From a virus, in IMG/VR virus record IMGVR_UViG_3300043438_001221: a stretch of DNA of 64,000 nucleotides, one strand, 5' to 3'. The position numbers and the translations under genes were made by a program. This document shows positions 6,213 through 63,049 of this stretch, one piece after another; the stretch's first letter is position 1, and every line of letters starts with the position of its first letter. A model generated the notes under the pieces. It did not search any database. It was not told the DNA's origin and saw nothing but the letters and a program-made list of their open reading frames with translations.

Positions 6213-7987
6213 CATCCTATTTTAAATTTACATCCGGTGAAGCATTTACCTTAAATGGTGTCGATTACTCTGGATTCTTTCACGTTGAAGATGGTGTTGC
6301 ATATACGGAACGAAATAAAAGTGTAACTTCTGAACAGCTTACACCAAAGAACACTTTCATTTCAGATTTCTATCTCAATAAGATGGAATTTGATAATCAA
6401 TTTGATTCTATCACAGAAGCATCTGATATAACAGCTAATGTTTTCGATGTTCTCAACAAGGTTGAGATGGAAAGATTATTATCCATCATCAACCAGAATA
6501 ATCTAATTGTTTTCAAATCTCTTGTAGTTAATAATCCACAAATCATCGATTTTACGGAAAATGATTCCCATTATTACGGATTGTCGTCAACGCCAATTGA
6601 CATGAGAGCAGACGATCTCATGCTTGGGAAGAAAAACATTTCCCATATTGACCCATTTAGGTATTCCCCTGAATGGTCTTTTTTAGAAAAAATCAAATAT
6701 GGCGCATTGTTTGTAAAATCCGATCAAACCTTCAAATATTTATGTTCGACGGGGTTTGAACTCTACACGCTCAAAGGATCATTCACCGATGAAGGTTATA
6801 TTGAGTATTCCGTGCAGGAATTGGAAATGCCCCAAGAAATTTATGGGATTGATTACGACGAATTTGAAAACAAAATAACAATCATTACTCTCGGAGAATT
6901 AATGATATATGATTCCATCAATTTCATCGAATGTGATACTTTAGTATTGGTGGATTCCATCAAATTGGGGGATGTTGATTCTGAGGTATTTAAATGGAAC
7001 ACCGAGAAAAAATTCAAGGACTTGATTGGGAAATGGGGTCGTAAATTTTATAATATACCTAAATTTTCAACAAAATTCATCCGATTTGGTAATAATTACA
7101 GAACATCTATTGAAAATGATGTTCTGATTCTTACAAATAAATATTCAACGGAAAAAGTTATTGAATGTAATTTACCATCAATTGGTATAGACACATTATT
7201 GGATGTAAATATCAGAGTCATTGATGATTATGTTATAATTTTACATCAAAAATCCAACAATTTTCACATCACATTTTTTGATCCCTTGGATATTGCGGGG
7301 AGCTTAAAAGATTTTCAAATATTTGAATTCAAACCCAGCGATAATTACCGAGTATTGTTCTCCAACCACGATTCCAATTTATTTTATTTGAATAGTGTAG
7401 CGCAATGTCAGACGCGCACAATCTCAAATCCCACTTATCCAACGGGACAAATGCGAGAAAGTAATCTGAAATATGTGAAAAAGGAAACATTCAGAAATTA
7501 TATACAAAAATTTGGAAATGGTAATTTGAAATGGAATACATTATCTCTGGATTCAAATTATTTCACAAATTATATGTTTGATAGTATCACCAAAGCCGAT
7601 AAAAATTATATATTTTTGCTAAATTCCGGTAGAATATATCCACTTCATCAAAAAATTCAAAATGCTTATTCACCAGCAATATCCTTAGATTTGATAAAAA
7701 ATTATAATGGTATTCGTTGTTCTGATACTTCCTTTGGGTTATTTTTCAATAAAACCATATCATATATATTAAAAGACATATTAACTCTTTATACAAACGC
7801 TACCAACTCCTATTCAATCGGGAAAAATGACATATTTCTCACAAAAATTCAAGAAATCACCTACGACACCAATAATCTATACATGAATGGCAATGAAAGC
7901 GTCAACGTGTTGGCAATACAGCGGATTCTAACATTATTGACAGACCTTCAGAAACAATTGGTAGTTAATTTAACATCCACTGAATAA
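6209..7987 (+). CDS. Putative structural protein (592 aa)
   Basis: Overlaps upstream stop; structural operon context. Confidence 0.5.
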   Translation: MTSYFKFTSGEAFTLNGVDYSGFFHVEDGVAYTERNKSVTSEQLTPKNTFISDFYLNKMEFDNQFDSITEASDITANVFDVLNKVEMERLLSIINQNNLIVFKSLVVNNPQIIDFTENDSHYYGLSSTPIDMRADDLMLGKKNISHIDPFRYSPEWSFLEKIKYGALFVKSDQTFKYLCSTGFELYTLKGSFTDEGYIEYSVQELEMPQEIYGIDYDEFENKITIITLGELMIYDSINFIECDTLVLVDSIKLGDVDSEVFKWNTEKKFKDLIGKWGRKFYNIPKFSTKFIRFGNNYRTSIENDVLILTNKYSTEKVIECNLPSIGIDTLLDVNIRVIDDYVIILHQKSNNFHITFFDPLDIAGSLKDFQIFEFKPSDNYRVLFSNHDSNLFYLNSVAQCQTRTISNPTYPTGQMRESNLKYVKKETFRNYIQKFGNGNLKWNTLSLDSNYFTNYMFDSITKADKNYIFLLNSGRIYPLHQKIQNAYSPAISLDLIKNYNGIRCSDTSFGLFFNKTISYILKDILTLYTNATNSYSIGKNDIFLTKIQEITYDTNNLYMNGNESVNVLAIQRILTLLTDLQKQLVVNLTSTE

Positions 7988-7995
7988 ATAACATT

Positions 7996-8601
7996 ATGGC
8001 ATTACCAAATTTAACCGACGAATTTGTAGCAGACAGCTTTTTTGGGGTATTACACACTTCAAATGTGCCTGTTTCTGGAGCAAACTTACCCCCTGTATAT
8101 GATGGGTTGGGTAATAAGACATCCCTTATTTTGGGATCAAATGGTAATGGTGCTTCAATTACAGGAACTCTCTCTGCTGATGGGTTGACATTGAAAGGTT
8201 TCACATCAATTATTGATTATATATATCCCATTGGATCGGTTCTATTTACCAACACCAGCACCAACCCGTCGGTAAGATTCACTGATACTACATGGGAGCA
8301 AACCGCAGAAGGTCGGTTTATAGTTGGAGTTGGTGTTGGAAATGATGGAATTGAATCTAAAATATTCGGGACTGGTAATACAGAAGGAACTTACAGCCAT
8401 ACTTTATCTGTCACTGAAATACCGCCCCACACTCATAGTATAACAGCGCGACCAGATCAATCATCCGTGGATTTTGATAATTCTGTTCAAGGGGGGTCTA
8501 ATGGCGATTGGACAGCAACCACAACCTCGACTGGTGGTGGTCAACCACACCAGAATACACCACCCGGTTTCGGTATGTATATTTGGCAAAGAACATCTTA
8601 A
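7996..8601 (+). CDS. Baseplate/short tail fibre protein (gp10 C-terminal/collar-like)
   Basis: YPIGS...WEQ..GRFIVG...HTLSVTEIPPHTH...GGGQPHQNTPP..YIWQRT motif set; late promoter 7985-7990. Confidence 0.75.
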   Translation: MALPNLTDEFVADSFFGVLHTSNVPVSGANLPPVYDGLGNKTSLILGSNGNGASITGTLSADGLTLKGFTSIIDYIYPIGSVLFTNTSTNPSVRFTDTTWEQTAEGRFIVGVGVGNDGIESKIFGTGNTEGTYSHTLSVTEIPPHTHSITARPDQSSVDFDNSVQGGSNGDWTATTTSTGGGQPHQNTPPGFGMYIWQRTS

Positions 8602-8607
8602 TATAAT

Positions 8608-9666
8608 ATGCCTGACATCTATATATCGAAAATTAAAGTTCGTAGAGGAACAAATGCAGAGATCAATTCAACACGTTTTGATCAGGGAGAACTTGTCCAT
8701 GCAACGGATTCCAAACGCCTGTTTATTGGTAACGGTGTATTGAGTGGAGGTAATCCGGTTTCCAGTAAAATTCATCCCCCTCTCAATAATTATTATAGTC
8801 TTAGCACCACGTTGGCGGAAGTTGGTGATCTAGTGTCCGTCAATTCCATATGGTATCAACTCACAGCAGCCCCTCATAGCAATGCTTCCAATTGGGGCAA
8901 TATGCGGACAAAATTCTCTTCCGAATTTGTATATGACACCACATCAACCGTCAATATGGCAGTTAGTGGGTTATCGGCATCCAAACTCAATGCCAACACC
9001 ATCACCAACGGTATTAAAATAGCGGGAGATAAACTTCAACTGGATTATAAAACCAATTTCTTCGAAATATCTTCAAATCAGCTTTCCATTAAAACCGGAG
9101 GTATTACAACGCGGGAAATTCTTTCGTCATCTTTTGCAAATGGATTGAGTGGTGGTAATGGAAGACCAATATCACTAACGGTGTCCCCGACAGATTTCAG
9201 TTTTAGTTCGGGTATTCTTTCCGCAAATTATAGTCGCATTTCAGCTTACGGTTTGAACACACAATCACATCTTCCGGTATCCGCCTATAATGCCCTCAGT
9301 GGACTTCCGGCTAAAGTTGGAAACATATCATCGGTTGACAGGGTGATCTATCAATTACAATCACTACCATCCACATCGTTATCCAACTGGGAAGCCATTT
9401 CCAAAGACGGATTGACCATTTATGATACCTTAACAGGTAATTCCACAAATAATTCCTTATCAGCACTCTTCAATGGTAGTCCATCCCAACTCACGGATGG
9501 TGTGGTTCCCGGCATACGACTAACAAGTTTCACAGCGTTGTCTTCCAACGGACTTTCCTCAGTATCTATCACATTATCTTCTGCTGGTTTTATCACATTT
9601 GCAAATGATATAACCGAAACCGGAAAAACCGTAAACAGATTCGCAATCCCAATCTTCACTTACTAA
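8608..9666 (+). CDS. Tail fibre-like protein with Mtd N-terminal-like domain
   Basis: KIKVRRGT...GELVHATDSKRLFIGNG N-terminal motif. Confidence 0.65.
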   Translation: MPDIYISKIKVRRGTNAEINSTRFDQGELVHATDSKRLFIGNGVLSGGNPVSSKIHPPLNNYYSLSTTLAEVGDLVSVNSIWYQLTAAPHSNASNWGNMRTKFSSEFVYDTTSTVNMAVSGLSASKLNANTITNGIKIAGDKLQLDYKTNFFEISSNQLSIKTGGITTREILSSSFANGLSGGNGRPISLTVSPTDFSFSSGILSANYSRISAYGLNTQSHLPVSAYNALSGLPAKVGNISSVDRVIYQLQSLPSTSLSNWEAISKDGLTIYDTLTGNSTNNSLSALFNGSPSQLTDGVVPGIRLTSFTALSSNGLSSVSITLSSAGFITFANDITETGKTVNRFAIPIFTY

Positions 9667-9667
9667 T

Positions 9668-10135
9668 ATGCACATTTCAATTACAAATGACACTCTTCTA
9701 AAGTTGCTTGCTCGACAAGGAACTGATGCAGAACGTTTAAATGTCCTTTTAAACTCTGGAGAATTCGCATTCACCACCGATACCGAACGTCTTTTTATAG
9801 GTAATGGTGCTGATAATGGTGGCGTTCTAGTTGGTAATAAATTCAAGGGATCAAATCCTGATATAACAATATTCTCTCCTTCTGAAATTGGAGATTTGGC
9901 ATATAATAGTGATTCAAATGTGCTGTATCGTTTAAAAGAGAATGAAGGTTCGTTGTTATCCGATTGGGAGAAAATCGGGGGTTCTGGTGTGACTAGCGAT
10001 ACCAATCAGGCTCTTGGGGGTGTTAAAATTGATAATTTAGTTCGTGTGACTTCTGCCGCATGGTCAACTTTGTCAGCTTCCAATGATCCAAATACTTTTT
10101 ACATTGTTTCCAATGTGAATTATATAATCACCTAA
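9668..10135 (+). CDS. Tail fibre-like protein, paralogous N-terminus to 8608..9666
   Basis: RQGT...GEFAFTTDTERLFIGNG motif; C-terminal DPNTFYIV fibre motif. Confidence 0.65.
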   Translation: MHISITNDTLLKLLARQGTDAERLNVLLNSGEFAFTTDTERLFIGNGADNGGVLVGNKFKGSNPDITIFSPSEIGDLAYNSDSNVLYRLKENEGSLLSDWEKIGGSGVTSDTNQALGGVKIDNLVRVTSAAWSTLSASNDPNTFYIVSNVNYIIT

Positions 10136-10145
10136 TCCATAACAA

Positions 10146-11099
10146 ATGATAACGTGGAGCCAAACTAATTCTGGGGGGGCGTGGCAAACCCTAAACAGCG
10201 GATACACCGTTGATTATAGGGTGGATGCTTCCGTGGAATGTGGAGGTGTTGCAGATACATACCAATGGGGTAGCTCCAATGGATATGTCACACTCGCCCC
10301 CGGAGACACCCTAACATTTGATTATTCAGTATCGGCTACTTTTGAAACCGCAAGAATCGGGATGGAGATTGCTGAAGTATATTTAGATGGTATTCCCGCT
10401 GATTATTTGTATAATAATGAAACTCTTCCTGAAACTTGCACAACTGAATTACAAACATCTTCCAACACCGTTTCATTCTATAATTCTTACGGTGTTGATT
10501 ACGATTATTATATAGATTTATCTTTCACCACTAGCGACGGTTTGTGGCACTCTTCTGATGTTGGGGTGATATTGGAAATAACAAATTTCACGATCACTCC
10601 AGAATCGACCACCTCTACCACACCATTCCCAACTACCACCTCTACCACACCATTCCCAACTACCACCTCTACCACACCATTCCCAACTACCACCTCTACC
10701 ACGACTACATTATCTGGGACTACAAGCACTACTACAACGTTGTCTGGGACTACAAGCACTACTACAACGTTGTCTGGGACTACAAGCACTACTCCCGATC
10801 CAAATACAAGCACTACTCCATCTGGATCGACTACCACAGAATCTCCAAGTGGATGTTGTGCGCCACCCCCAAATGATCCGATCATCAATCCTCCGATCAT
10901 CCCAAATTTCACAACCCTCACAATACCACCATTAGTGATTGGATTGATACCGCCAACATCATTGAATCCATTCACACTTCAAATCACGACAACCACCACT
11001 ACAATACCAAATACCACAACCACGACGACGATTGTTCCAAATACTGGAACAATCGCGCCTATTGAATGTGTGGGCTATTGTAAAAAGCTGGGATTCTGA
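10146..11099 (+). CDS. Thr/Pro/Ser-rich mucin-like putative virion protein
   Basis: Beta-rich N-domain, then (TTSTTPFPT)n and (TTSTTTTLSG)n repeats and a Cys-containing C-terminus; end of tail operon. Confidence 0.7.
   Translation: MITWSQTNSGGAWQTLNSGYTVDYRVDASVECGGVADTYQWGSSNGYVTLAPGDTLTFDYSVSATFETARIGMEIAEVYLDGIPADYLYNNETLPETCTTELQTSSNTVSFYNSYGVDYDYYIDLSFTTSDGLWHSSDVGVILEITNFTITPESTTSTTPFPTTTSTTPFPTTTSTTPFPTTTSTTTTLSGTTSTTTTLSGTTSTTTTLSGTTSTTPDPNTSTTPSGSTTTESPSGCCAPPPNDPIINPPIIPNFTTLTIPPLVIGLIPPTSLNPFTLQITTTTTTIPNTTTTTTIVPNTGTIAPIECVGYCKKLGF
10608..10793 (+). repeat. In-frame coding tandem repeats: 27-nt x3.4 and 30-nt x2.7
   Basis: accacctctaccacaccattcccaact at 10608/10635/10662; tctgggactacaagcactactacaacgttg at 10713/10743, partial at 10773. 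Confidence 0.95.
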
Positions 11100-11110
11100 T
11101 AATTATTGAC

Positions 11111-11950
11111 ATGCGAAAACTTACGATTGGTATTCCCACCTACAATGATTACGATGGTTTATATTTCAGCATTCAAGCCATCCGCACATATCATCGGGAA
11201 GTCCTAAATGATATTGAATTTGTTATTATTGATAATAATCCTGATTCAGCACACGGACAATCCAATAGAAATCTCACGAATTGGATCAAGGAACCGTTTC
11301 AATACCTCCCATTCACCAAATACAACGCATCCACCGTTAAAAACAAGGTGTTTTCGTTGTCTGACTGTCCATACACCCTCTGCATGGACAGTCATGTGAT
11401 GATCGTCCCCGGTGCCTTGAAAAAATTGATCCATTTATATGATTGTGGGGGGGATGCTGGTAATCTTTTACAAGGTCCATTGCTTTATGATGATTTTCAT
11501 CATTATTCCACCCATTTCGATGACACTTGGAGTTCCCATATGTGGGGAACTTGGCAAACGGATGAAAGAGCCAAAGAAACGGATGCGCCCCCCTTTGAAA
11601 TACCAGCCCAAGGCATGGGATTGTTCTCCTGTAGAACAGATTCGTGGTTGGGCTTCAATAAGGCGTTTCGGGGCTTTGGAGGCGAGGAGAAGTATATCCA
11701 TGAGAAGTATCGCCAACACGGTAAGAAGACGCTCTGCTTGCCCTTCCTGCGCTGGCTACACCGCTTTGAACGTCCCGCTGGCATTCCATACAAGAACGAC
11801 CTAAAGGATCGCTTCCGTAATTACATGATTGGACACCACGAATTGGGACAGGATACCAAAGTTCTTCGGGAACAGTTCAAGGGTGTGGTATCCTTGGAGG
11901 ATATGGATAAGATTGAGAAGGAAGCTGTGATATTAGCCAGCATTAAATGA
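11111..11950 (+). CDS. GT-A glycosyltransferase with polypeptide-GalNAc-transferase-like motifs
   Basis: LTIGIPTYN, IIDNN, DSH (DxH), GMGLFS, GFGGEE, RWLHRF..PY; TAATTA 5 nt before ATG. Confidence 0.8.
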   Translation: MRKLTIGIPTYNDYDGLYFSIQAIRTYHREVLNDIEFVIIDNNPDSAHGQSNRNLTNWIKEPFQYLPFTKYNASTVKNKVFSLSDCPYTLCMDSHVMIVPGALKKLIHLYDCGGDAGNLLQGPLLYDDFHHYSTHFDDTWSSHMWGTWQTDERAKETDAPPFEIPAQGMGLFSCRTDSWLGFNKAFRGFGGEEKYIHEKYRQHGKKTLCLPFLRWLHRFERPAGIPYKNDLKDRFRNYMIGHHELGQDTKVLREQFKGVVSLEDMDKIEKEAVILASIK

Positions 11951-13624: not shown

Positions 13625-14788
13625 ATGTTGAAGGCAATTAAAATCAGACTCTATCCAACTCAAGAACAGGAGAATTACATCTCCCAATTATTGGGTTCCT
13701 GTAGGTTTGTCTATAATAATTGTTTGGCATTGAAAATTAAAAATTATAACGACGATAAGAAATCAACATCTTTTAAAGAGCTTGGTAAGCATCTTACGGG
13801 CTTGAAAAGCCAAGAGGAAACAATATGGTTAAAGGATGTTCATTCCAAAGTTCTACAACAGTCTCTTATCAATCTGGAAGCTGCATATAAATCATTTTTC
13901 AAAAATGGCGCAGGATTTCCAAAATTTAAATCCAAGAGAAATAAACAATCTTGTAGGTTTCCAGTGGACGCAATTGGAAAAATAAATGGTAATAGAATCA
14001 ACATTATAAAACCTCTAAGAAATATTCATTTCAAATGCTCCAAACGAGACGAAACACATCTTAATAATTTTCAAGATGATATAAAATCAGCAACATTATC
14101 CAAAAATGGGTATGGTCAATATTATTTCAGTGTTCTGGTTGAGATACCAATTCAAAAGGAATTACCATTGTCTAATAAATCGATTGGCTTGGATGTTGGT
14201 ATCAAGACTTTTATCGTTGATTCCAATGGACATGAGTGGGAAAATATCAAGATAAAAAGAAACAATCAAAAGAAACTTGCCAGACTCCACAGACGGCATT
14301 CTAAAAAATTAAAAGGGTCTAAGAACAAAGAGAAATCAAGAATCAAATTAGCAAAATACCATGATAAATTATCAAACATAAAAAACCATTATCTTCATCA
14401 GGTGTCCAATAAGATTATAGAGGAAAACCAACTCATAATCATTGAAGACTTGAACGTTTCAGGAATGATGAAGAACCATAAATTGGCAAAGTCGATCCAA
14501 GAATTATCTATTTTCAGATTCAAAGAAATCCTTACTTACAAATGTAATTGGTATGGAAGGGATTTGATACAGATAGATAGATTCTTTCCAAGTTCTAAAT
14601 TATGTGGGAATTGTGGTTATAAAAATGACAACTTAACCTTAAAAGATAGAACTTGGAAATGTGGGGAGTGTAATACGATCCACTCAAGGGATTTAAATGC
14701 CGCTAAAAACATCCTCAAGGAAGGATTAAGAATTTCAAATATAGGGCTGAGTTCGCCCGAATTTACGCTTCAGGAGATTTGTCAATAG
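13625..14788 (+). CDS. tnpB: RNA-guided endonuclease TnpB (IS200/IS605 family, solo)
   Basis: N-terminal KIRLYPT HTH, GFPKFK, RuvC D (GLDVG), E (IEDLN), D (RDLNAA), Zn finger CGNC..CGEC. Confidence 0.95.
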   Translation: MLKAIKIRLYPTQEQENYISQLLGSCRFVYNNCLALKIKNYNDDKKSTSFKELGKHLTGLKSQEETIWLKDVHSKVLQQSLINLEAAYKSFFKNGAGFPKFKSKRNKQSCRFPVDAIGKINGNRINIIKPLRNIHFKCSKRDETHLNNFQDDIKSATLSKNGYGQYYFSVLVEIPIQKELPLSNKSIGLDVGIKTFIVDSNGHEWENIKIKRNNQKKLARLHRRHSKKLKGSKNKEKSRIKLAKYHDKLSNIKNHYLHQVSNKIIEENQLIIIEDLNVSGMMKNHKLAKSIQELSIFRFKEILTYKCNWYGRDLIQIDRFFPSSKLCGNCGYKNDNLTLKDRTWKCGECNTIHSRDLNAAKNILKEGLRISNIGLSSPEFTLQEICQ

Positions 14789-29246: not shown

Positions 29247-29265
29247 ATTTTCATTAAATAATATC

Positions 29266-29697
29266 ATGCTTGAGGATTTACAAAAATTATATGAGGAGAT
29301 TTTGCTGGAATACAGAACATCCCCCCATCAACTTTCCGATATGAGTCTCAAACAGGCTTACAACGAATGTTATGAGATTTTCAAGGATTTGGGATTCACC
29401 ACGGCATCCACTTTTGCCATTTGGGATTATATCTATCGAAACTTACCAGATAAAATCAAAACGCCGGAAGTCCAACAATCCAAGAAAAAACATTATGGGA
29501 CGAATCTTCGCCCATTCATCGTCAATCTAATCAACTCAAACATGGCAAAAATAAATCTAAAAGACCTGAAATCCAAGATGTTAAACCGCGATCTAATCAA
29601 ACAATATCTTGATCGAAATGAGTATGGCAACAGACGAACAGGACTTTTGAAAAAATTATCCGCCGAATCGGAGAGAGATATTGTAAGAGATTACTAA
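29266..29697 (+). CDS. Late protein, candidate internal head protein
   Basis: TAAATA 29255-60, 5 nt to ATG; N-terminus MLEDLQKLYEEILLE. Confidence 0.6.
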   Translation: MLEDLQKLYEEILLEYRTSPHQLSDMSLKQAYNECYEIFKDLGFTTASTFAIWDYIYRNLPDKIKTPEVQQSKKKHYGTNLRPFIVNLINSNMAKINLKDLKSKMLNRDLIKQYLDRNEYGNRRTGLLKKLSAESERDIVRDY

Positions 29698-47146: not shown

Positions 47147-47627
47147 AAATAGAAAGATCATCGACATTGATGAGATATTTCGGGATACGAATGGAAATTT
47201 CGCAATCCTTTTGGAATCCCTTGGATTGACCACCACCTTTGATTTCTCCAAGCGCAATAACAAAAAGTTATACACACATGAGTTCATCAAGACCACGACA
47301 CAATTCCTGAAATACAACACCCACACGGATTTCATTTTCTTTTCCAATGCGCTCACCAAGGATAAGTTCCGCAACCAGCTTTTGGCTAAAATCCGGCGAA
47401 TCTTCAAGATAAGGATATGGGATGCCAATTATGATTTGGAACATTTGGAATACCTGATTGATATTCGGGATTGCTCCACAATCTCTGGATTGGAAATGGC
47501 ATTCCTCAATCACAAACCCCCATCATTCCGCAAGATTTACAAATATCTGGAAAAGGAAGGACTAACATTCCTAAATGAGAAATACTTTCAGGATGTGGTG
47601 AATAAGATGATCATATTTACTAAATAA
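47127..47627 (+). CDS. Hypothetical protein
   Basis: ORF track. Confidence 0.65.
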   Translation: MTRIQFENRKIIDIDEIFRDTNGNFAILLESLGLTTTFDFSKRNNKKLYTHEFIKTTTQFLKYNTHTDFIFFSNALTKDKFRNQLLAKIRRIFKIRIWDANYDLEHLEYLIDIRDCSTISGLEMAFLNHKPPSFRKIYKYLEKEGLTFLNEKYFQDVVNKMIIFTK

Positions 47628-47631
47628 TGTC

Positions 47632-48069
47632 ATGAGCAAATTTCTTGAGATTCTTGAACAACACGATCCTTCCAACCAATCCAAGATGGATGCAGCATTT
47701 CAGGCGAAATTCTTCCTATATGAACAGGAAGTCCCATTCAGTTCAAAGGGTTCCCAAATTATCCTTCATGCTGAACGGGGTGATATCATTTTAGAAGCTG
47801 TGGGTATGCAAGCCCGACAAGTGGCGGATGCTGAAGAGGACGAGTCTTCTTATGACATTGATTCCGAAGTTGAAAAGCTTGGTGCCAAAGCGATGAAAGG
47901 GATACCGGGGTGGTTGGGTAAGCACACCACTAGCGCACAAAAAGCGAAAGCAGCAGCACGAAAACGTGAAAAGGTTGCTGGAAAAGCAGTGGACGCTTAT
48001 ATGAAAAATACTAAAAGTTTGGAAGATTCCATTAAAAATGCTGAAACTAGAACATATAATGTCCATTAA
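47632..48069 (+). CDS. Late protein, candidate head core protein
   Basis: TAAATA 47621-26, 5 nt to ATG; MSKFLEILE. Confidence 0.6.
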   Translation: MSKFLEILEQHDPSNQSKMDAAFQAKFFLYEQEVPFSSKGSQIILHAERGDIILEAVGMQARQVADAEEDESSYDIDSEVEKLGAKAMKGIPGWLGKHTTSAQKAKAAARKREKVAGKAVDAYMKNTKSLEDSIKNAETRTYNVH

Positions 48070-52809: not shown

Positions 52810-53544
52810 ATGAGACTAGCAATTAGCGGCACACAAAATTCTGGAAAATCCACGTTAGTAAAAGCATTCCTCCAGAAATGGCCCATGTATGCCACACCAG
52901 CCAAAACATACAGGGATGTAATCAAGGAAAACAATCTTTCCCATTCTTCCAATACCACGGAAGAAACCCAATTATTGATTCTTGATCATCTCACACAATC
53001 TTTGGATACACATAAGGATATAAAACACATCATCTATGACCGCTGCCCCCTTGATTGTCTTGCTTACACATTACATGCCGCTGAAAAAGATTTGGTATCC
53101 GAAGATGTTTTGGGCGTGACGGTGGATATTGTTCGTCGTTCTCTGAAAAATCTTGATATCATCTTCTGGCTGAAATACGATCCAGCTATCAAGATCGTTG
53201 ATGATGGGACACGTGACACCAACCTTAATTACATTCGGGAAATTGATGATATCTTCGCGGGACTTTTCGAGCAATATTCCGATCATTTGGGCAATACACC
53301 GTTCTTCATTGCGGAAGATTGTCCCGCCATCATCCCCGTTGACATGACAAATCTCGATGATAGGATTGCATGGATTGGAGAGTTCCTTGACCAGAAAGGC
53401 GATCTGATTGAGACGGGAGAAAGCGTTCTTGATCCCAAGAATCTGGAGATGATGGAACAAATGCTGAAAGACCAAGGACTTTGGATTGAGAAGGATCAGC
53501 AATACAAGAATCTGAAGGATCAGATCAAGAATTTTAAAATATGA
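52810..53544 (+). CDS. P-loop NMP/dNMP kinase-like protein
   Basis: ISGTQNSGKSTL, YDRCPLD.LAY, DDGTR. Confidence 0.75.
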   Translation: MRLAISGTQNSGKSTLVKAFLQKWPMYATPAKTYRDVIKENNLSHSSNTTEETQLLILDHLTQSLDTHKDIKHIIYDRCPLDCLAYTLHAAEKDLVSEDVLGVTVDIVRRSLKNLDIIFWLKYDPAIKIVDDGTRDTNLNYIREIDDIFAGLFEQYSDHLGNTPFFIAEDCPAIIPVDMTNLDDRIAWIGEFLDQKGDLIETGESVLDPKNLEMMEQMLKDQGLWIEKDQQYKNLKDQIKNFKI

Positions 53545-54383
53545 GTGAAAAAATCGGATTAGCAATCATAACCAAACAACCACGGGACACGTTTCCAGAG
53601 GCTTTTGATTTTTGGCATCACATGGTAGATCATGTTGTTGTTGTGAACGATGGGGATGAATTTACATACGATTGGAGTGCAGGATTTAGAAATAAATATG
53701 TTGGTAGATTTCCTGAAACCACTTTAACATATCTCAAAAATCCTGAGAACTTGGGAGTCGCCACCTCAAAAAACAACGCGATGCGACATCTTTTGAATCA
53801 AGGATGTGATCATATCTTTATCATGGAAGATGATATGCGAATAATTGATAATGGGATTTTTGATGCTTATATCAATGCTTCCAAGAAGAGTGGCATCCAA
53901 CATCTGATGTTTGGCTACCATGGACCAGCCAACAAAAACGGCATCTCCCACGGTAAACCATGTCCCCGATTGGTGGTGGATTATGGGGATTTCTCCCTAG
54001 CATTCAACCAACATTGTGTGGGAGCGTTTTGTTATTATTCCCGCAAATGTCTGGAAGATGTTGGTCTAATTGACGAGAAATTTCGAAACGCTTTTGATCA
54101 TGTTTCCCATAGCTACGAGCTTGCCCTGAAAGGATATTCCACTCCTTATTGGTGGTGGGCAGACTTGGCAAATTCCTTGGATTATATTGAAGAGCAAGCG
54201 TGTTCGGAGGAAAATTCGTCCATCAAGACCCCAGAATCCATGCAGAAATGGGAGAGTAATATTCGTGGTTCCATGGATTATTTCAAGGAGAAATTCGGTG
54301 TTTATCCTTTTGGAAGTGATGGTGTTCGGGATACGGATGAAAAAGATGTATTGACTTTCTTAAAAACTAAGCGACAATCCTGA
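53541..54383 (+). CDS. GT2-like glycosyltransferase
   Basis: VVVNDG, NLGVATSKN, FIMEDD, VGLIDEKF. Confidence 0.85.
   Translation: MSEKIGLAIITKQPRDTFPEAFDFWHHMVDHVVVVNDGDEFTYDWSAGFRNKYVGRFPETTLTYLKNPENLGVATSKNNAMRHLLNQGCDHIFIMEDDMRIIDNGIFDAYINASKKSGIQHLMFGYHGPANKNGISHGKPCPRLVVDYGDFSLAFNQHCVGAFCYYSRKCLEDVGLIDEKFRNAFDHVSHSYELALKGYSTPYWWWADLANSLDYIEEQACSEENSSIKTPESMQKWESNIRGSMDYFKEKFGVYPFGSDGVRDTDEKDVLTFLKTKRQS
54360..54378 (+). promoter_or_regulatory. Degenerate copy 6 of TTAAAAACTAG promoter
   Basis: TTAAAAACTAAgcGACAAT-N7-ATG (54386). Confidence 0.5.
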
Positions 54384-54385
54384 AT

Positions 54386-54598
54386 ATGAAAGAAAAAATC
54401 TATCCGATCAGAACGGTCGAAGAATTTAAAGAATCAGCAGCGAATTGGGAATTTGCCACGATGGTATCAACAAGCTCTGACAACAGAGAAGAAATTGAAA
54501 AGGCTGATGTTATTTGTAGTATTGAAGAAAAAAGGTGGGATGAGTGTAGGCATCTTTTTGAATTTAGTGAAGATGGTGATTTAGTAGGATTAAAATGA
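54386..54598 (+). CDS. Hypothetical protein
   Basis: ORF after motif promoter. Confidence 0.55.
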   Translation: MKEKIYPIRTVEEFKESAANWEFATMVSTSSDNREEIEKADVICSIEEKRWDECRHLFEFSEDGDLVGLK

Positions 54599-55404
54599 AA
54601 ACAGATTTAAGTAACATTGGCTTAATGATCCACTTCCGTAGGGATGTGGATGACCGCTTTCGCAATCTGGAAATGGTTGTGAAATTTTATAGAGAAAATT
54701 CTGACAATCTCCAGATCGCCATTCTGAATGACGATAAGGAATTGGATAAGGACTTCAAGAGACTCTGCAAGCAATACGATTGTAAGGGTCTGTTCATGGA
54801 AAATTCTGATGTCTATTGGAGAACCAAGGCATTCAATGAGATGTCCAAGATTCTGGATGTGGATTATCTGATTGCAGGAGATACCGATGTGATCGTTGAT
54901 CCGAAATTTATTTTGGAATCGAAACAATTGTTTGATAGTAATGTCGGGATTGTATATCCTTACAACGGAATGTTCATCCATTTGAAGCAACCAATGTTTG
55001 AAATGTTCGCCGTAGATCAATCCTTAGTTGACCTATTGGACAAATCTCAAACACTCAAACCAATTCCTTATGATCAGGATGAGAACTTTTTAGTCGCCCA
55101 TCCGCAAAGCAAGGGGGGAATGGTGATGTTCAAAAAGGATGTATTTGTTGAATGCAATGGATACAATCCCAATTTCAAAGGATGGGGGTATGAGGATGAC
55201 GAGATTCTGGCTAGATTTCAGAAGATGGGTTGGGGTATTCTACGGGTTAATAATGCGGAAGCGATTGCATGGCATTTGCCACATGAGAATACCGTGAGAG
55301 AGAAGCATCCATATTACGATAACAATCGGAGACATTCTGATTTTGTTTGTGGGGATACGAAGTGGGAGGATTTGGAACGATATATTTGGAGTTGGACGAT
55401 ATAA
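54595..55404 (+). CDS. Galactosyltransferase-like (GT7 C-terminal motif) glycosyltransferase
   Basis: DTD, KGGMV, NGYNPNFKGWGYEDDE, WHLPH. Confidence 0.85.
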   Translation: MKTDLSNIGLMIHFRRDVDDRFRNLEMVVKFYRENSDNLQIAILNDDKELDKDFKRLCKQYDCKGLFMENSDVYWRTKAFNEMSKILDVDYLIAGDTDVIVDPKFILESKQLFDSNVGIVYPYNGMFIHLKQPMFEMFAVDQSLVDLLDKSQTLKPIPYDQDENFLVAHPQSKGGMVMFKKDVFVECNGYNPNFKGWGYEDDEILARFQKMGWGILRVNNAEAIAWHLPHENTVREKHPYYDNNRRHSDFVCGDTKWEDLERYIWSWTI

Positions 55405-55413
55405 TTAAATAAT

Positions 55414-56190
55414 ATGGAAGATGAATTAATCATTAGCCACAATGCTGGTTTTTTTTCGTGTAGTTCAGTGGCGTTGAATCAAATAGTTGATTATGTGAAT
55501 ATTCACAATCGCTTACCGAGTAATATAAATAGATCATGCCAATACAGTGAATATAAAATAAACATGAATGATAATTTAATTCAATTATTATTTGATGACG
55601 AAAACACTGAATATAATTTTGAATCAATTATTGATTATCAGCATAATCGACAGTTTACTCCGTATAAAAATTTGGAATATGAGAAAATTTTTCCATTGGT
55701 TGCTAAGTATTTCACCCCATCCAAATCAATTTATAATATTATTGATAAAATTGAAAATTCTCTCAATATAAATTATGATGATACTATCGCGGTTTGTTAT
55801 AGGGGAAATGATAAATGGACGGAAACTTCCATTGCAACATATGAAGAATTTATTGATAAATGTGAAAGCCTGAACGCTGAAAATAAAACATTTTGTTTAC
55901 AAACAGATGTGAAAGAATTTTTTGATTTATTTGTGAGTCGGTTTCCAAATACCATATATAATCCTAATTTGGATATGATTAACCACAATCCATCCACCAG
56001 CATTCATTACACATATCCCAAAAATTCCGAAGAAAGATTGAATCACGGTATGAATTTATTTGCAAATGTATATGTATTATCTAAGTGTTCGCAGATCGTA
56101 ACTTACAGTGGCAATGTTGGAATCTGGATATGTTTATATAGAAATAAATCAAAGGGTATTCATCAGTATTTAAACGGGGAGTGGGTGTAA
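55414..56190 (+). CDS. NodZ/FUT8 (GT23)-like fucosyltransferase
   Basis: AGFFS, VCYRGNDKWTE, LQTD, LSKC...SGNVG. Confidence 0.65.
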   Translation: MEDELIISHNAGFFSCSSVALNQIVDYVNIHNRLPSNINRSCQYSEYKINMNDNLIQLLFDDENTEYNFESIIDYQHNRQFTPYKNLEYEKIFPLVAKYFTPSKSIYNIIDKIENSLNINYDDTIAVCYRGNDKWTETSIATYEEFIDKCESLNAENKTFCLQTDVKEFFDLFVSRFPNTIYNPNLDMINHNPSTSIHYTYPKNSEERLNHGMNLFANVYVLSKCSQIVTYSGNVGIWICLYRNKSKGIHQYLNGEWV

Positions 56191-56198
56191 TTTTGTAT

Positions 56199-56885
56199 AT
56201 GAAACCTAAATTTTCAATATGTATCCCCGTGTGGGAACAGCACGGATTCGGTCTTCAATATTTAAAATACCTTATTCATTCCATACAAATTCAGTCGTTT
56301 CAAGATTATGAATTGGTTATTTCGGATCATAGTCAAAACAGAGAAATTTTTGAATATTTAGACTCAGAGACATTTGATTTAATATATTTAAAATATGATG
56401 AAAATTATGGAAATGGTGTAGCCAATCTCAACAATGCGCTAAAAATGGTGAATGGGAAAATCATTAAGATCATGTTTCAAGATGACTTCATGTTTGACCG
56501 TAGATGTCTGGAAAAATTTGATAAAACATTTCAGGATGAAAATACCAAATGGGCTGTTTGTGGATGTAATCATACCAGAGATGGTGTGAATTTTGAAAGA
56601 CCCATGGTTCCGTCTTGGAATGACAAATTGTTGGAAGGTGTGAACACGATCAGTTCACCATCCGTTCTGGCGTTTCGTAATGAAAACGTGGAATTGTTTG
56701 ATGAGAACTTGACAATGCTCATGGATACGGCATACTACTACCGATTGGGAGAACGATACGGATTACCTACAGTAATTGATGATTGCTTGGTGTCGAATCG
56801 TTGTCATGAGAATCAGATCAGCAGTAGGTATAGTGGAAATTTGGAAGAAGAGATCAAATATTGTAAAGAAAAATATGGAAAATGA
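56199..56885 (+). CDS. GT2 glycosyltransferase
   Basis: FSICIP, ISDHS, NLNNAL, FQDD, ISSPS, FDENL. Confidence 0.85.
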   Translation: MKPKFSICIPVWEQHGFGLQYLKYLIHSIQIQSFQDYELVISDHSQNREIFEYLDSETFDLIYLKYDENYGNGVANLNNALKMVNGKIIKIMFQDDFMFDRRCLEKFDKTFQDENTKWAVCGCNHTRDGVNFERPMVPSWNDKLLEGVNTISSPSVLAFRNENVELFDENLTMLMDTAYYYRLGERYGLPTVIDDCLVSNRCHENQISSRYSGNLEEEIKYCKEKYGK

Positions 56886-57117
56886 TTTAAATATTAGTGA
56901 TTGTAGGGAATACCTTGCAATGAATTTAATACACTTGGAAAATTTGGTAGTGGAAATGAACCACTTAACCAGTAAAATCGAAAATGATGACTTAAAAAGT
57001 GTGTGTGAAGAATTGAAGAGAAGATTGAAAATTGTTCGCAAAAATAGCGTTCAAGCGTTGAACGCATCATTGGGTTACACATATACAGTGCCACATTATC
57101 GTTATGATAGTAACTGA
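56875..57117 (+). CDS. Small helical hypothetical protein
   Basis: Start MENDL; overlaps both neighbours. Confidence 0.5.
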   Translation: MENDLNISDCREYLAMNLIHLENLVVEMNHLTSKIENDDLKSVCEELKRRLKIVRKNSVQALNASLGYTYTVPHYRYDSN

Positions 57118-58006
57118 AATCTACAACGGCCAAGGGCTAGGCAATCAGCTTGCTTGTTACGTAACAACGCGAGTGGTTGCCAAGGATAAGGGATTTGATT
57201 TTGGTATTATGAATCCCCACAAGTTCAAGTGTTTGGACTTCATGGATTTGGATTTCGGATTGCCCGTCACGGGTGGTTCGGGAGGAGAGGGGGGACCACC
57301 CGATACGCTTCCAGATGGTATTCAATATTACTTTAAGGAGAAATGGTTATATCTTCCCAACGGTTCCAATGTGACGATTGATGATCCCAATCTGGAACTG
57401 ATTCAAGACAACACCAAAATTGATGGTATCTTCCAATCAGAAGATCGAATCATTCATCGCAAGGACGAGATTCGTCAATGGTTGAAAATCAAACCAGAAA
57501 AAGATTGTTGGGATTATTCCGATCCGAATATTTGCATTATCAATTATCGGGGAGGGGAATACGCAAGCGTTCGTGATTTCCATCTTCATGATCAATATTG
57601 GAAAGATGCTGTTCAGGACATGTTGGCGATAAATCCTAATTTTAGATTTGTGGTGATCACTGATGATGTGGAACGAGCGTCCAAACAATTTCCTTTTTAT
57701 GAGGTGAAACATTTTGATATTGCAAAGGATTTTACCATCATCAAGAATGCTCATTATCTGATCCTATCCAATTCCAGCTTCCCATATTTCGCTACTCTGT
57801 TGAGCGATACAGTGAAATATATTTTAGCTCCCAAGTATTGGGGGCGATACAATATTTCAGATGGTTATTGGTCGTGTGGTTATAACATTTTTAGAAATCA
57901 TAATTATATAGATCGGGGAGGAAATCTATTTACATGGGAAGAATGTGTGGTAGAATATGAGGGATACAAAAAACGAACGGGGATTTATGACAATACAAGA
58001 AATTAA
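57104..58006 (+). CDS. Alpha-1,2-fucosyltransferase-like (GT11)
   Basis: GLGNQL, GIFQSE, NYRGGEY, VITDD, ILSNSSF, APKYW. Confidence 0.85.
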   Translation: MIVTEIYNGQGLGNQLACYVTTRVVAKDKGFDFGIMNPHKFKCLDFMDLDFGLPVTGGSGGEGGPPDTLPDGIQYYFKEKWLYLPNGSNVTIDDPNLELIQDNTKIDGIFQSEDRIIHRKDEIRQWLKIKPEKDCWDYSDPNICIINYRGGEYASVRDFHLHDQYWKDAVQDMLAINPNFRFVVITDDVERASKQFPFYEVKHFDIAKDFTIIKNAHYLILSNSSFPYFATLLSDTVKYILAPKYWGRYNISDGYWSCGYNIFRNHNYIDRGGNLFTWEECVVEYEGYKKRTGIYDNTRN

Positions 58007-58652
58007 GGATAGGATATTAAGTTTGGATAATACTAATGTTAGATTAACAATGGTTCCACCCAAAGTTTTAGATAACGTCGAAAACGCGATTTTGGATTGT
58101 GTTGAAAACAATGTAGATGGTGATTTTGTAGAGACTGGTGTATGGAAAGGGGGTTGTTCTATACTTGCATACAACATGTATAAACAATTAAATTTAAATA
58201 AAAAAGTTTATTTATATGATTCTTTTGAAGGGCTTCCAAAACCAGACCCGACAAAATATCCAGTAGATAAAGGAGATGATCATTGGACACTTCCAGAGCT
58301 TTCAATTTCTTTGGAAGATGTTAAAGAGAATTTTAAAAAATTCGGAGAATTGGATGAAAATGTAATTTTTATTAAAGGATGGTTTAGAGATACAATACCT
58401 TTAAATGAAATTGACAAAATTTCAATATTGAGGCTTGATGGTGATATGTATGAGAGTACTATCGATCCATTACAATATCTATATCCAAAATTAGCTATTG
58501 GTGGTTATTGCATTGTTGATGATTATGGACACGCTGGAGCTAAAGCAGCGGTAGAAGATTATAGAAAGTTGTACAATATCACAGAAGATATCATTATTAT
58601 TGATGAATCGATTGGTGCATATCCATCCGCTTATTGGAAAAAAGAACGATGA
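57987..58652 (+). CDS. TylF/MycF/NovP family sugar O-methyltransferase
   Basis: GDFVETGVWKGG, DSFEGLP, KGWFRDT, LRLDGDMYEST, VDDY. Confidence 0.92.
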   Translation: MTIQEIKDRILSLDNTNVRLTMVPPKVLDNVENAILDCVENNVDGDFVETGVWKGGCSILAYNMYKQLNLNKKVYLYDSFEGLPKPDPTKYPVDKGDDHWTLPELSISLEDVKENFKKFGELDENVIFIKGWFRDTIPLNEIDKISILRLDGDMYESTIDPLQYLYPKLAIGGYCIVDDYGHAGAKAAVEDYRKLYNITEDIIIIDESIGAYPSAYWKKER

Positions 58653-59425
58653 AAAAGGTATTTGATGTATTCTCATTTTTCAATGAGTTGGATTTGTTGG
58701 AAGTTCGTCTGAACATTCTGGACAAATATGTGGATTATTTTGTGATTGTGGAATCGCGGCAGACCTTCACAGGAGTTGATAAGCCGTTGTATTACGAAGA
58801 AAATAAGGAGCGTTTCAAACAATGGCATTCCAAAATTATCCACCATGTGATGCATGATTTTCCTCAAGACGAAGATCACTATCAGCGAGCATTGAGAAGC
58901 CCAAATGTTGGAGATGGTGCTGAAAATTGGTTGAGAGAATTCTATCAAAAGGAAGCTCCAATCCGCGCACTGGAAAATATTTGTGTCGATGATGACATCA
59001 TTTTTCTTTCTGATTTGGACGAGATTTGGAATCCTGAAAATCCAGATATTTGCTACAATTTACAACATGGGCAAGTATATCGCCCAATTCAAACAGCTTA
59101 TCCATATTATCTAAATAACCGTTCCAATCAGGATATTGGGCATTGGACAGGAACAAGAGTTGGGACATACAAGACTCTGAAACATTATGGATGTAATCAT
59201 TTTAGAACGGAGCGAGAAGCTGAGAGTATTCCCATCTCAAACGGGGGGTGGCATTTCTCTTGGACAAATAAAGATGCAAAATATGAAGCATTTAAATACA
59301 ATGATGTTCAAGCTCGCTATGAAATCGTTTCCAGAGAAAAGACTTGGAAGGACGAATCGGAATTACCAAAATATATTATGAAAAACAAAGAAGAATTAGT
59401 GAAGAAAGGGTTGATGTTACCATGA
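58649..59425 (+). CDS. GT17 (beta-1,4-GlcNAc-transferase-like)
   Basis: FFNELDLLEVRL, VDYFVIVES..TFTG..KPL, SDLDEI, GGWHFS. Confidence 0.9.
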   Translation: MKKVFDVFSFFNELDLLEVRLNILDKYVDYFVIVESRQTFTGVDKPLYYEENKERFKQWHSKIIHHVMHDFPQDEDHYQRALRSPNVGDGAENWLREFYQKEAPIRALENICVDDDIIFLSDLDEIWNPENPDICYNLQHGQVYRPIQTAYPYYLNNRSNQDIGHWTGTRVGTYKTLKHYGCNHFRTEREAESIPISNGGWHFSWTNKDAKYEAFKYNDVQARYEIVSREKTWKDESELPKYIMKNKEELVKKGLMLP

Positions 59426-60021
59426 CACGGACGGAAATTATTAATGCGCTTATTGATAAGCATGGATACGAAGATTATCTGGAGATTGGCGTGAATACTC
59501 CATCACAACCGGGATATAATTGGGTCGGAGTAAAAGCACAAACGAAAACGGGAGTTGATCCCAATGTTGATACCACATTTAAGATGACATCCGATGAATT
59601 CTTTGAAAAGATGTCGCAACATTACTATGACATTGTGTTTGTGGATGGGCTACATATCTTTGAACAGGCTTATCGTGATATCGTAAATTCTTTGAAATGG
59701 TTATCTCCCAACGGAACCATTGTGGTTCATGATTGTAATCCTGTTACGGAAATCACACAACGTCGGGAACGGGCTTCCGATGCGTGGCATGGTGATGTCT
59801 GGAAGGCTATTGTGAAGCTTCGTATGGAGGAAATCGGACTCACTATTCACACGGTTGATACGGATGAAGGATGTGCTATTATTCGTCGTGGAAGTCAAAT
59901 TCTACTCCCCGTTTCTACTGATGAAGACCCCTATGATTATTCATTTTTGGAAAGACGCAGAGTGGAAGCTTTGAATTTGATCAGTGTTGAGGAATTTAAA
60001 AGAATTTATCTTGATTTATGA
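59422..60021 (+). CDS. Class I SAM-dependent methyltransferase
   Basis: YLEIGV, GVDP, TSDEFF, FVDGLH, VVHDC, GDVWK. Confidence 0.88.
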   Translation: MTRTEIINALIDKHGYEDYLEIGVNTPSQPGYNWVGVKAQTKTGVDPNVDTTFKMTSDEFFEKMSQHYYDIVFVDGLHIFEQAYRDIVNSLKWLSPNGTIVVHDCNPVTEITQRRERASDAWHGDVWKAIVKLRMEEIGLTIHTVDTDEGCAIIRRGSQILLPVSTDEDPYDYSFLERRRVEALNLISVEEFKRIYLDL

Positions 60022-63000: not shown

Positions 63001-63049
63001 TTTCCGTTTTCGAGTAAACCGTATGGAATTTAAATTCCTAGAATCTTAA
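60044..63049 (+). CDS. Long fibre protein: coiled-coil N-half, beta-rich receptor-binding C-half
   Basis: TAAATA 60032-37; ~400 aa coiled coil, SGGGT hinge, LEDLSDV and LPLSGGTLSG fibre repeats. Confidence 0.7.
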   Translation: MRLFSEEVKTTSSNSPLNIIQVANFSEIFFGVLEIEINEKKYPVEEVVKHGGNPVVLLPIVIEGVEKEYPFLLLKGKQEIFFNENNTEIPVSDEEILEESTEIDREQILLDIEKLKKDSVRKAQEELSRHLEIVKEKTKREKQKKEKALRLYLESARENLVDEFTTISQRIKKEVFDKNDEKYSEIRETIDNRIEEIRNSLGESLSKNFQKSSQIIDKSIKQLVKELWEKNINPRVDKELHNIATEIHEKVSEIDKNLNSKLDKKADRSLVEGVSKEIDIIRDANIELNNSLNKGVQKALSRVGNVDKKIVEISEKFDRKISETEQEVTEYFNEKLTLIKEETIDITDEARKYFQNLIQESRDGLLSEIRTIKNEKPVEYILETKKSGKVVKDWDSIEKEWNTKIHDKIENVKTDLRKYVTVYASGGGTNATQYQDGGTMNGDLNVTGAYLSAGVNLLDIFGGGGGGLTNPVEVLEFDTAYVSTGSEPAGSMYWNPTDETVDLVHDGAVQQIGQEMFIKVRNASGSTIQNGTPVYFDGRQGNRPKIYPAQSDLHSTSAVMGITTQDISDGDDGFITSFGYVRQIKTNYSGAGDWGTTWNEGDNLYVSKTITGQLTNVEPSAPHHSDVVGQVGIVGALGVGSIFVSIRHHQALEDLSDVNGTALTTTGQVPTWNNSLSAFDFNYNITDYLPLSGGTLSGNLSANSVTVTAAEIGRDLVDADAVVLNGGRSLLSRFWTYVKSKLDLGQTVGGSWAFSSTTRPTSSGTGTPDANSLITFADALTQLDSVIGWNLIPFINSIQSTFNVGGSNSLTLNAVHIQLTSGGTSVSATAGYSFNSANAQGILPYKGSETLIHWSKRLKVRLGIAMASFDGDAIGWFWVGCDSTAPVGNAPPNTLRGYGLRFDNSGGTVRITPVTHDGTNYIYGTPVTHTQTVYTMDMYNGTMNVFNADNTLVATVSGGRSIDSATNRSVQLHCQTTLNNGVGNNYFRFRVNRMEFKFLES

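Follow-up and report, generated by a model that had tools for sequence, protein, structure and literature searches.

In this report, we describe a two-gene locus of an uncultured virus that may encode a mucin-like virion protein together with the enzyme that glycosylates it. The locus occupies positions 10146-11950 on the plus strand of a 64-kb window of virus DNA (IMG/VR record IMGVR_UViG_3300043438_001221; the window, throughout, is this whole stretch), whose source is an uncultured, distant T4-like aquatic myovirus. It consists of a gene for a 317-aa threonine-rich (Thr-rich) protein followed by a gene for a stand-alone glycosyltransferase (GT) of the GT-A fold. Our preferred reading, to which we assign a probability of about 0.58, is that the phage enzyme O-glycosylates the Thr/Ser tracts of the protein encoded by its neighbor and that the modified protein is displayed on the virion. 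The observations on which this reading rests are the anatomy of the two genes, the similarity of fold between the enzyme and the polypeptide N-acetylgalactosaminyltransferases (ppGalNAc-Ts, family GT27), the conserved catalytic motifs, the conserved pairing and the peptide-handling fusions found in bacterial relatives; from these we infer the acceptor, the sugar, the elongation of the glycan by a cluster of enzymes at 53.5-60 kb and the location on the virion. The pair had been singled out in an earlier note made from the letters of the window, and both of the open reading frames (ORFs) that it named were confirmed: the TGA of the Thr-rich gene ends at 11099 and the ATG of the GT gene stands at 11111, which leaves a gap of 11 nt.

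The enzyme matches Pfam Glycos_transf_2 (PF00535) over residues 5-165 (E 2.5e-8; 34.5 bits against a gathering cut-off of 23.3), and every motif that had been quoted for it in the earlier note is present, namely CMDSHV (residues 91-96), QGMGLFS (167-173), GFGGEE (188-193) and LPFLRWLHRF...PY (210-227). In GT27, Mn2+ is bound by the D-x-H motif and the later His, and we propose D93, H95 and H217 as the putative metal ligands of the phage enzyme. An alignment of 33 members (A1) showed D41-N42, D93-x-H95, G122-P123, W140, F189-G190, E193 and W215-x-H217-R-F to be invariant and GFGGEE nearly so; D93 and H95 are also invariant in an alignment of 70 homologs (A3), where GFGGEE and W215-x-H217-R-F are again invariant or nearly so. 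A match to the motifs of ppGalNAc-Ts, in the same order, had likewise been noticed there, and it was reproduced by a profile (HMMER) alignment of the C-terminal half of the enzyme to GalNAc-T7, in which GFGGEE is placed on IWGGEN, CLPfLRWvH on FVPCSRVGH and PFEIPaQGlGLFac on PYRSPAMAGGLFAI; the Trp of WGGEN is replaced by Phe in the phage enzyme, and the local E value of this alignment is just 0.16, which is weak on its own. The protein begins with MRKLTIGIPTY, which already forms beta strand one of the fold (residues 4-10), and the chain, which has no stem, membrane anchor or N-terminal hydrophobic segment, stops at residue 279 straight after the catalytic domain, with no ricin-B lectin domain (no lectin match). 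Homologs are abundant in metagenomes: 1542 were found in a collection clustered at 90%, many of them at 60-95% identity and on contigs of up to ~215 kb, and 1699 among representatives at 50% identity. The GT has no match in PHROGs, and its single NCBIfam match, to PglI, lies far below threshold.

Structural comparison placed the enzyme closest to the ppGalNAc-Ts. A model was built with AlphaFold2 from the alignment of homologs (pLDDT 94.8, pTM 0.92) and was searched against PDB with Foldseek, where ranks 1 to ~44 were all ppGalNAc-Ts (E 7.5e-14 to 1.5e-11; query-normalized TM scores of 0.64-0.75) and the first match outside GT27 was TarP, at rank 45. A VIA-align search of 48,161 chains, of which the best 50 entries were listed, gave GalNAc-T1 (8v9q) a Z score of 22.7 over 258 of 279 residues (root-mean-square deviation 3.0 A) and Toxoplasma gondii GalNAc-T3 (TgGalNAc-T3) a Z score of 22.1; the next family was the chondroitin polymerase K4CP (Z 18.6), followed by WrtF (Z 17.3) and TarS (Z 17.2) and, further down, by Mimivirus R699 (Z 13.3) and the glycocin GT SunS (7msp; Z 12.1 over 171 aa). 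Thus, where the earlier note had asked in advance whether the best fold match would be a DNA- or lipid-acting GT, both Foldseek and VIA-align returned protein-acting ppGalNAc-Ts. No DNA GT occurs among the 50 VIA-align entries or the Foldseek rows listed, and no GT60 member among the listed rows of the fold and sequence searches, which did not include a search with a GT60 profile. In BFVD, the one close viral structure is a GT-A enzyme of an uncultured freshwater phage (TM 0.86, 29% identity), and giant-virus matches have E values of ~1e-8 or weaker. Judging from its predicted structure, the enzyme is best described as a minimal soluble protein that is ppGalNAc-T-like in fold and not as a demonstrated member of GT27; we do not file it under that family because the lectin domain and the membrane anchor are missing and no detectable sequence similarity, on which CAZy assignments are based, links it to GT27.

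The 317-aa product of the upstream gene is built from a non-repetitive N-terminal domain, a stalk of Thr/Ser/Pro repeats and a conserved C-terminal module (Table 1). At the DNA level, the repeats comprise a 27-nt unit in 3.5 copies and a 30-nt unit in 2.7 copies, each 100% identical; they are followed by a Pro-rich stretch (CCAPPPNDPIINPPIIPNFTT..., which begins CCAPPPN), two T6 runs and the C-terminus ECVGYCKKLGF. The richest 30-aa window of this protein consists of Ser and Thr to 83%, the next best value in all six frames of the 64-kb window being 50%, and the runners-up are spurious frames; runs of five or more Thr occur in this ORF alone. The Thr/Ser-rich ORF is therefore the sole one of its kind in 64 kb and not a chance feature. 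An antisense ORF at 10508-10975 was considered as a gene and rejected as a by-product of the repeats. The protein as a whole has no Pfam, PHROG or NCBIfam match. For its N-terminal domain, a search for homologs among 5.8 billion proteins returned the self-match alone, tblastn against all of the related loci that were retrieved gave nothing below E 0.28, and a single-sequence AlphaFold model was unusable (pLDDT 45.6).

The pairing of the two genes is conserved in related phages. A scan of IMG/VR yielded 53 further loci with GT identities of 59-95%, which together form 26 clusters at 90% GT identity, 25 of them evaluable (counts are taken where enough upstream sequence is available). A Thr/Ser-rich ORF on the plus strand ends 10-13 nt before the GT gene in 44 of 54 loci, and the four closest relatives, with 94% GT identity, retain the arrangement. 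Counted by cluster, the upstream ORF is Thr/Ser-rich in 18 of 25, compared with 5 of 382 control ORFs of at least 100 aa, and it ends in the motif C-x(2-5)-C-x2-L-x-[FYW] in 19 of 25; the synteny that the earlier note had proposed to look for thus extends to diverged relatives. The spacing element is retained as well. That note had described a late-promoter-like TAATTA at a 5-nt spacing, and the box is real (11100-11105, 5 nt before the GT ATG) and conserved in relatives, with TGATAATTA-N4/5-ATG retained ahead of the GT gene in the majority of diverged loci, so this part of the description stands and the promoter role is putative. TAATTA is a one-base variant of a TAAATA box that lies at gene starts of the window, where 16 of 22 matches to TAAATA-N5-ATG open ORFs of at least 60 codons, as against 18% of all ATGs. 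Examples of the TAAATA form at 7982-7998, 29252-29268 and 47618-47634 leave near-zero space for a leader or a Shine-Dalgarno sequence.

A comparison of the upstream proteins revealed which parts of them are kept. In an alignment of 26 distinct phage sequences (A2), the C-terminal module reads CC-PPP..., PP.IP.FTT, NP[LF]T, a poly-Thr run of 12-18 residues and C-x3-C-N/K-K-L-G-F, and C76, C80 and L83 are invariant. The N-terminal parts range from none, in proteins of 115-177 aa that start at the Thr tract, to ~650 aa, and they are unrelated between lineages; the large versions (706-814 aa) contain Cys-rich globular parts. For the larger phage acceptors, Pfam gave nothing meaningful. Stalk and C-terminal module thus persist while the N-terminal domains differ completely. 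In some genomes, genes with the C-terminal module occur in tandem, as two or three copies; examples are found at L001:4738-6034 (two genes, of 339 aa and 90 aa) and at L005:4014-5989 (three genes, each with a different N-terminal part). The variation in copy number and in N-terminal parts suggests a cassette-like exchange. The Thr-rich genes are mis-called or missed at L001:4738-6034, L002:4600-6034 and L004:4657-6034; the JGI annotation puts ORFs of the minus strand in their place, ENA entries show no gene there, and runs of N interrupt the Ser/Thr repeats in two of the four assemblies of the closest relatives. The acceptor genes are systematically overlooked by gene callers, which may explain why the pairing has not yet been described, and protein databases consequently contain too few members of this acceptor family. 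One related GT, 69% identical to that of the window and inside the phage clade, lies on a 3.6-kb contig (L058) binned in a Flavobacterium metagenome-assembled genome; this is either a weak hint at the host or a binning artefact.

The GT domain is also found in bacteria of many phyla (421 confirmed matches at 43-55% identity, one genome per species), mostly within multidomain proteins. Among 70 representatives, 22 are fused to an HprK-related kinase A domain, 19 to a PqqD peptide-chaperone domain and 13 to a GT25 domain, several carry methyltransferases, and a sulfotransferase and a peptide beta-hydroxylase occur once each. In pathways for ribosomally synthesized and post-translationally modified peptides (RiPPs), it is the PqqD domain that recognizes the leader peptide. 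In 40 of 80 bacterial loci, one to five small genes adjoin the GT gene and encode an RR-type signal and a conserved leader, W-x-[KR]-P-V-V-x2-V-x-V-P-A-H-A, followed mostly by poly-Thr; such genes lie among loci L060-L137, for example at L086:3579-3998, L075:1786-3896 and L087:2159-7231. Pfam and NCBIfam searches with these precursors gave nothing beyond a twin-arginine translocation (Tat) signal. Because of the PqqD fusions and the leader-bearing poly-Thr precursors, the bacterial branch looks, by analogy, like a polypeptide-modifying system that acts on Thr-rich substrates, and the small genes look like an undescribed system of glycosylated peptides or of secreted mucin-like proteins. No relevant paper was found in the literature on the leader motif, on poly-threonine precursors or on GT27 in phages or bacteria.

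The phage GTs group together (SH-aLRT 98) in a quick maximum-likelihood tree, to which a midpoint root was given solely for drawing. Sister to them are two stand-alone GTs of Verrucomicrobia that likewise have poly-Thr ORFs just upstream. As far as such a tree can indicate, this would fit one acquisition event for the pair, whatever the direction of transfer. We speculate, tentatively and with more doubt than confidence, that these enzymes represent a prokaryotic sister clade of the ppGalNAc-Ts that glycosylates poly-Thr, that mucin-type O-glycosylation, in the sense of an initiating GT-A enzyme with DxH...H that works on Thr-rich tracts, thus exists in bacteria and their viruses and maybe predated or seeded the eukaryotic system, and that T4-like aquatic phages use it for a glycosylated, modular stalk on their surface.

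Our data suggest a model whereby the phage enzyme would be a pared-down version of the catalytic domain of ppGalNAc-Ts that works in the cytoplasm of the host. At a late stage of infection, with Mn2+ held by D93, H95 and H217, it would move a sugar from a nucleotide-sugar to Thr and Ser hydroxyls of the protein encoded just upstream, with its variable head, its poly-Thr/Ser/Pro stalk and its constant C-terminal module. The module may attach the protein to the virion, serve in docking or recognition of the enzyme, or both, and the four Cys residues may cross-link after lysis. Once glycosylated, the stalk would resist proteases, bind water and be stiff, and it would keep an exchangeable head at a distance from the particle as a shield or adhesin; a stalk alone may act as a hydrated brush. 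The enzymes of the second cluster (53541-60021) could add further sugars and O-methyl caps.

Several observations weigh against this model. Sequence alone scores the enzyme as a generic GT2, its Pfam family being PF00535 with no match to Glyco_transf_7C; GT27 was reached only at E 0.16 in phmmer and profile searches of PDB sequences, in which the best match was the teichoic-acid GT TarP, over the N-terminal nucleotide-binding half (E 5e-8). Polysaccharide- and teichoic-acid-acting GT-A enzymes trail the ppGalNAc-Ts at Z 16-19, and the acceptor cannot be deduced from a common fold. The earlier note had the tail operon ending with the Thr-rich protein, and the placement after the Gp10_C and Mtd_N genes holds; the label of tail protein, however, is owed to gene position only, because the protein matches no virion family and its N-terminal domain is an orphan. 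Four diverged clusters (L049-L052) have no adjoining Thr-rich gene, and in two of them, the most diverged phage loci, a radical-SAM/SPASM gene lies directly upstream of the GT instead (L051:4949-6004 and L052:4944-5999; Pfam E 4e-10 and 1.5e-6), with genes for large Thr/Ser-rich proteins (401-1043 aa) nearby; this is a hint that peptides may be modified further. Everything beyond anatomy, fold and synteny is, moreover, our inference.

The same observations bear on what else the locus could be. It could form a non-structural, RiPP-like module whose Thr-rich product is glycosylated but released or host-acting, as a decoy or as a modifier of surface or matrix, and is no part of the virion. The resemblance of the bacterial relatives to peptide-maturation systems (PqqD/HprK-like fusions, leader precursors, Tat-like signals) speaks for this, as do the radical-SAM/SPASM enzyme adjoining the GT in L051 and L052, the lack of a virion-family match and the existence of minimal versions (115-177 aa) made of stalk and C-terminal module alone. 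The phage proteins, however, have no signal or leader motif (the pattern W.KPVV..V.VPAHA has zero matches in phage loci), their gene is always the last plus-strand gene of the baseplate/fiber block, with a spacing of 10-13 nt, and the 706-814-aa versions with Cys-rich globular parts resemble structural proteins, so we consider such a module unlikely. S-glycosylation of the conserved Cys was rejected as a candidate activity, SunS-type enzymes being distant and nothing else speaking in its favor. A different acceptor within the virion appears to us improbable: the enzyme would then target the fibers, the 1001-aa protein encoded at 60044-63049 or several proteins, and the Thr-rich protein would be a flexible structural neighbor. 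Mucin-like tracts are found in no other ORF of the window, and the tight, conserved adjacency, with the parallel poly-Thr pairing in bacteria, favors the neighbor as acceptor, against the facts that a cluster of GTs and methyltransferases adjoins the 1001-aa gene, that the upstream fiber proteins are ~40% Ser/Thr in places and that mycobacteriophage GTs act on capsid and tail-tube subunits (summarized in PMC12619734).

Acceptors other than proteins must also be weighed. If the enzyme acted on a lipid-linked or cell-wall glycan (teichoic acid, lipopolysaccharide or capsule) and so altered the host surface, its adjacency to the Thr-rich gene would be a matter of operon packing. Such an activity would agree with the alignment of the N-terminal half to TarP mentioned above, with weak matches to PglI, EpsD and PgaC-type enzymes and with the usual interpretation of the GTs of large cyanophages as cell-surface modifiers (PMC12801897). 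GT27, however, scores ~4 Z units higher and covers the whole domain, including the C-terminal half, the enzyme has no membrane segment, and PqqD/HprK-like fusions and precursor-peptide neighbors are not features of polysaccharide GTs; a glycan acceptor is thus likewise improbable. Glycosylation of phage DNA as a base hypermodification is a function that phage GTs often have, according to PMC12619734, and the GT2-like ORF at 53541-54383 of the window has a sub-threshold TAGT match (E 0.0022). The structural searches returned no DNA GT among their listed matches, the gene sits in the structural block, away from replication and nucleotide genes, and the bacterial relatives occur in peptide-type contexts, all of which makes a DNA-modifying role very improbable. 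O-glycosylation of the neighboring Thr-rich protein remains our preferred reading.

The genomic setting of the pair is summarized in Table 1. The window has a G+C content of 38.6% and encodes a family-B DNA polymerase, a DnaB-type helicase, a RecA/UvsX-like protein and baseplate/fiber proteins; its DNA polymerase shares just ~30% identity with the polymerases of T4-like cyano-, pelagi- and rhizobiophages. When 50,697 deposited phage genomes were searched at the DNA and protein levels with the pair and with the GT, neither a match nor a cultured relative was found. A structural block on the plus strand spans the start of the window to 11950, and the Thr-rich gene and the GT gene form the end of its baseplate/fiber part, a placement kept in relatives. 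The three baseplate/fiber genes directly upstream (7996-10135) match tail-fiber PHROGs, and their order is the same in related loci. Downstream, a 387-aa ORF on the plus strand (13625-14788) was judged by eye to be an IS200/IS605-type TnpB candidate, with a zinc finger (CxxC...CxxC) near its C-terminus.

Table 1. Coordinates of the Thr-rich gene, the glycosyltransferase gene and associated features in the 64-kb window
Feature	Position	Strand	Evidence or remark
Gp10_C baseplate protein	7996-8601	+	Pfam E 3.4e-17
Mtd_N-domain fiber-type protein	8608-9666	+	Pfam Mtd_N; E 5e-8 and 4e-7 over both Mtd_N genes
Mtd_N-domain fiber-type protein	9668-10135	+	Pfam Mtd_N; E 5e-8 and 4e-7 over both Mtd_N genes
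Mucin-like protein, 317 aa, proposed glycan acceptor	10146-11099	+	ORF; N-terminal domain, Thr/Ser/Pro repeat stalk, C-terminal module
N-terminal domain, ~152 aa, predicted all-beta, non-repetitive	10146-10601	+	no detectable relatives
Perfect tandem repeats, TTSTTPFPT x3 then TTSTTTTLSG x3	10608-10793	+	Tandem Repeats Finder (TRF)
Conserved C-terminal module, ~85 aa	10842-11096	+	alignment A2; CC-PPPN...PP.IP.FTT...NP[LF]T, polyT, C-x3-C-[KN]-K-L-G-F
Intergenic TAATTA box plus 5 nt before GT ATG	11100-11110	+	sequence; conserved in relatives
Stand-alone GT-A glycosyltransferase, 279 aa, ppGalNAc-T-like catalytic domain	11111-11950	+	Pfam PF00535, model, Foldseek
Second sugar-enzyme cluster	53541-60021	+	directly before 1001-aa protein gene

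Other genes for the handling of sugars are present in the window and in its relatives. The second cluster contains Pfam matches to Glyco_transf_7C (E 7.6e-14), GT2 (E 5e-9), GT17 (E 3e-26), TylF O-methyltransferase (E 6.5e-69) and Methyltransf_24, and a GT11 match below the cut-off. Its enzymes possibly extend or cap the glycans of the Thr-rich protein. In addition, a sugar-phosphate nucleotidyltransferase of the RmlA type (PF00483, E 5.5e-55) is encoded in close relatives (loci L138, G001:C1:185237-188914, and L139, G002:C1:114725-118402). In G001, whose genome measures 207 kb and has terminal repeats, it lies ~20 kb from the pair, so the lineage may be able to synthesize the donor sugar itself.

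The literature that we searched contains no description of such an enzyme-acceptor pair in phages. What appears to be new, judging from the modeled structure, is an initiating enzyme of the GT27-like type in a tailed phage; to this we add a putative family of dedicated mucin-like acceptors, defined by alignment, with a conserved C-terminal module and swappable heads. The pair is spread through an abundant uncultured aquatic lineage and has a parallel system in bacteria. It also defines a specific and testable enzyme-acceptor couple, in which the nearest solved relatives of the enzyme are the initiators of animal mucin glycosylation. If our reading is true, a glycosylated modular surface protein could affect the adsorption of phages, the stability of their particles and their grazing and decay in water, and a soluble, lectin-free enzyme of 279 aa would offer an appealing minimal means of O-glycosylating peptides. 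The bacterial leader-bearing poly-Thr precursors would then be an undescribed class of glycosylated secreted peptides, with a bearing on the origin of GT27.

To our knowledge, mycobacteriophages are so far the only phages in which glycosylation of virion proteins has been demonstrated. The closest known system for the enzyme itself is that of the ppGalNAc-Ts (GalNAc-T1, 8v9q; GalNAc-T2; GalNAc-T10; T. gondii GalNAc-T3), on whose catalytic domain the whole 279 aa superposes. In both, D-S-H replaces DxD and is followed, in matching order, by a GGE motif and a late His, and the enzyme is paired with an acceptor-like protein rich in Thr, Ser and Pro. In contrast to GT27, the phage enzyme has FGGEE where GT27 has WGGEN, it lacks the ricin-type lectin domain, the stem and the membrane anchor, and it would work in the bacterial cytoplasm and not in the Golgi; the identity is 13-17%, and sequence searches fail to recognize the phage enzyme as GT27. 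With the GTs of RiPP pathways (glycocin GT2 enzymes of the SunS/ThuS type and maturases guided by PqqD or RiPP recognition elements), the connection runs through the bacterial members of the clade, which share PqqD/HprK-like domains and leader precursors; the phage enzyme, by contrast, has no PqqD domain, SunS is a distant structural match, and the phage acceptor, which lacks an N-terminal leader, shows its conservation at the C-terminal end.

Among viruses, large aquatic phages have many GTs, and these are commonly credited, without evidence, with modifying the host surface or DNA (PMC12801897, PMC12619734). In mycobacteriophages, virion glycans are carried by the C-terminal ends of capsid and tail-tube subunits of these actinobacteriophages, as PMC12619734 reports in summarizing Freeman et al. 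2023 (Cell Host Microbe 31:1216). Similarly, the present phage would encode a GT for its own structural proteins, and the GT gene sits among structural genes; the differences are that the proposed acceptor is a dedicated mucin-like protein, that the phages are T4-like aquatic myoviruses and that the enzyme is GT27-like. Giant viruses (Mimivirus, chloroviruses) make glycosylated fibrils or capsids with virus-encoded GTs (PMC9614988). They share with the present system a virus-encoded, host-independent glycosylation machinery, with several GTs and sugar methyltransferases in one genome, but their hosts are eukaryotic and their GTs match the phage model weakly, as seen for Mimivirus R699.

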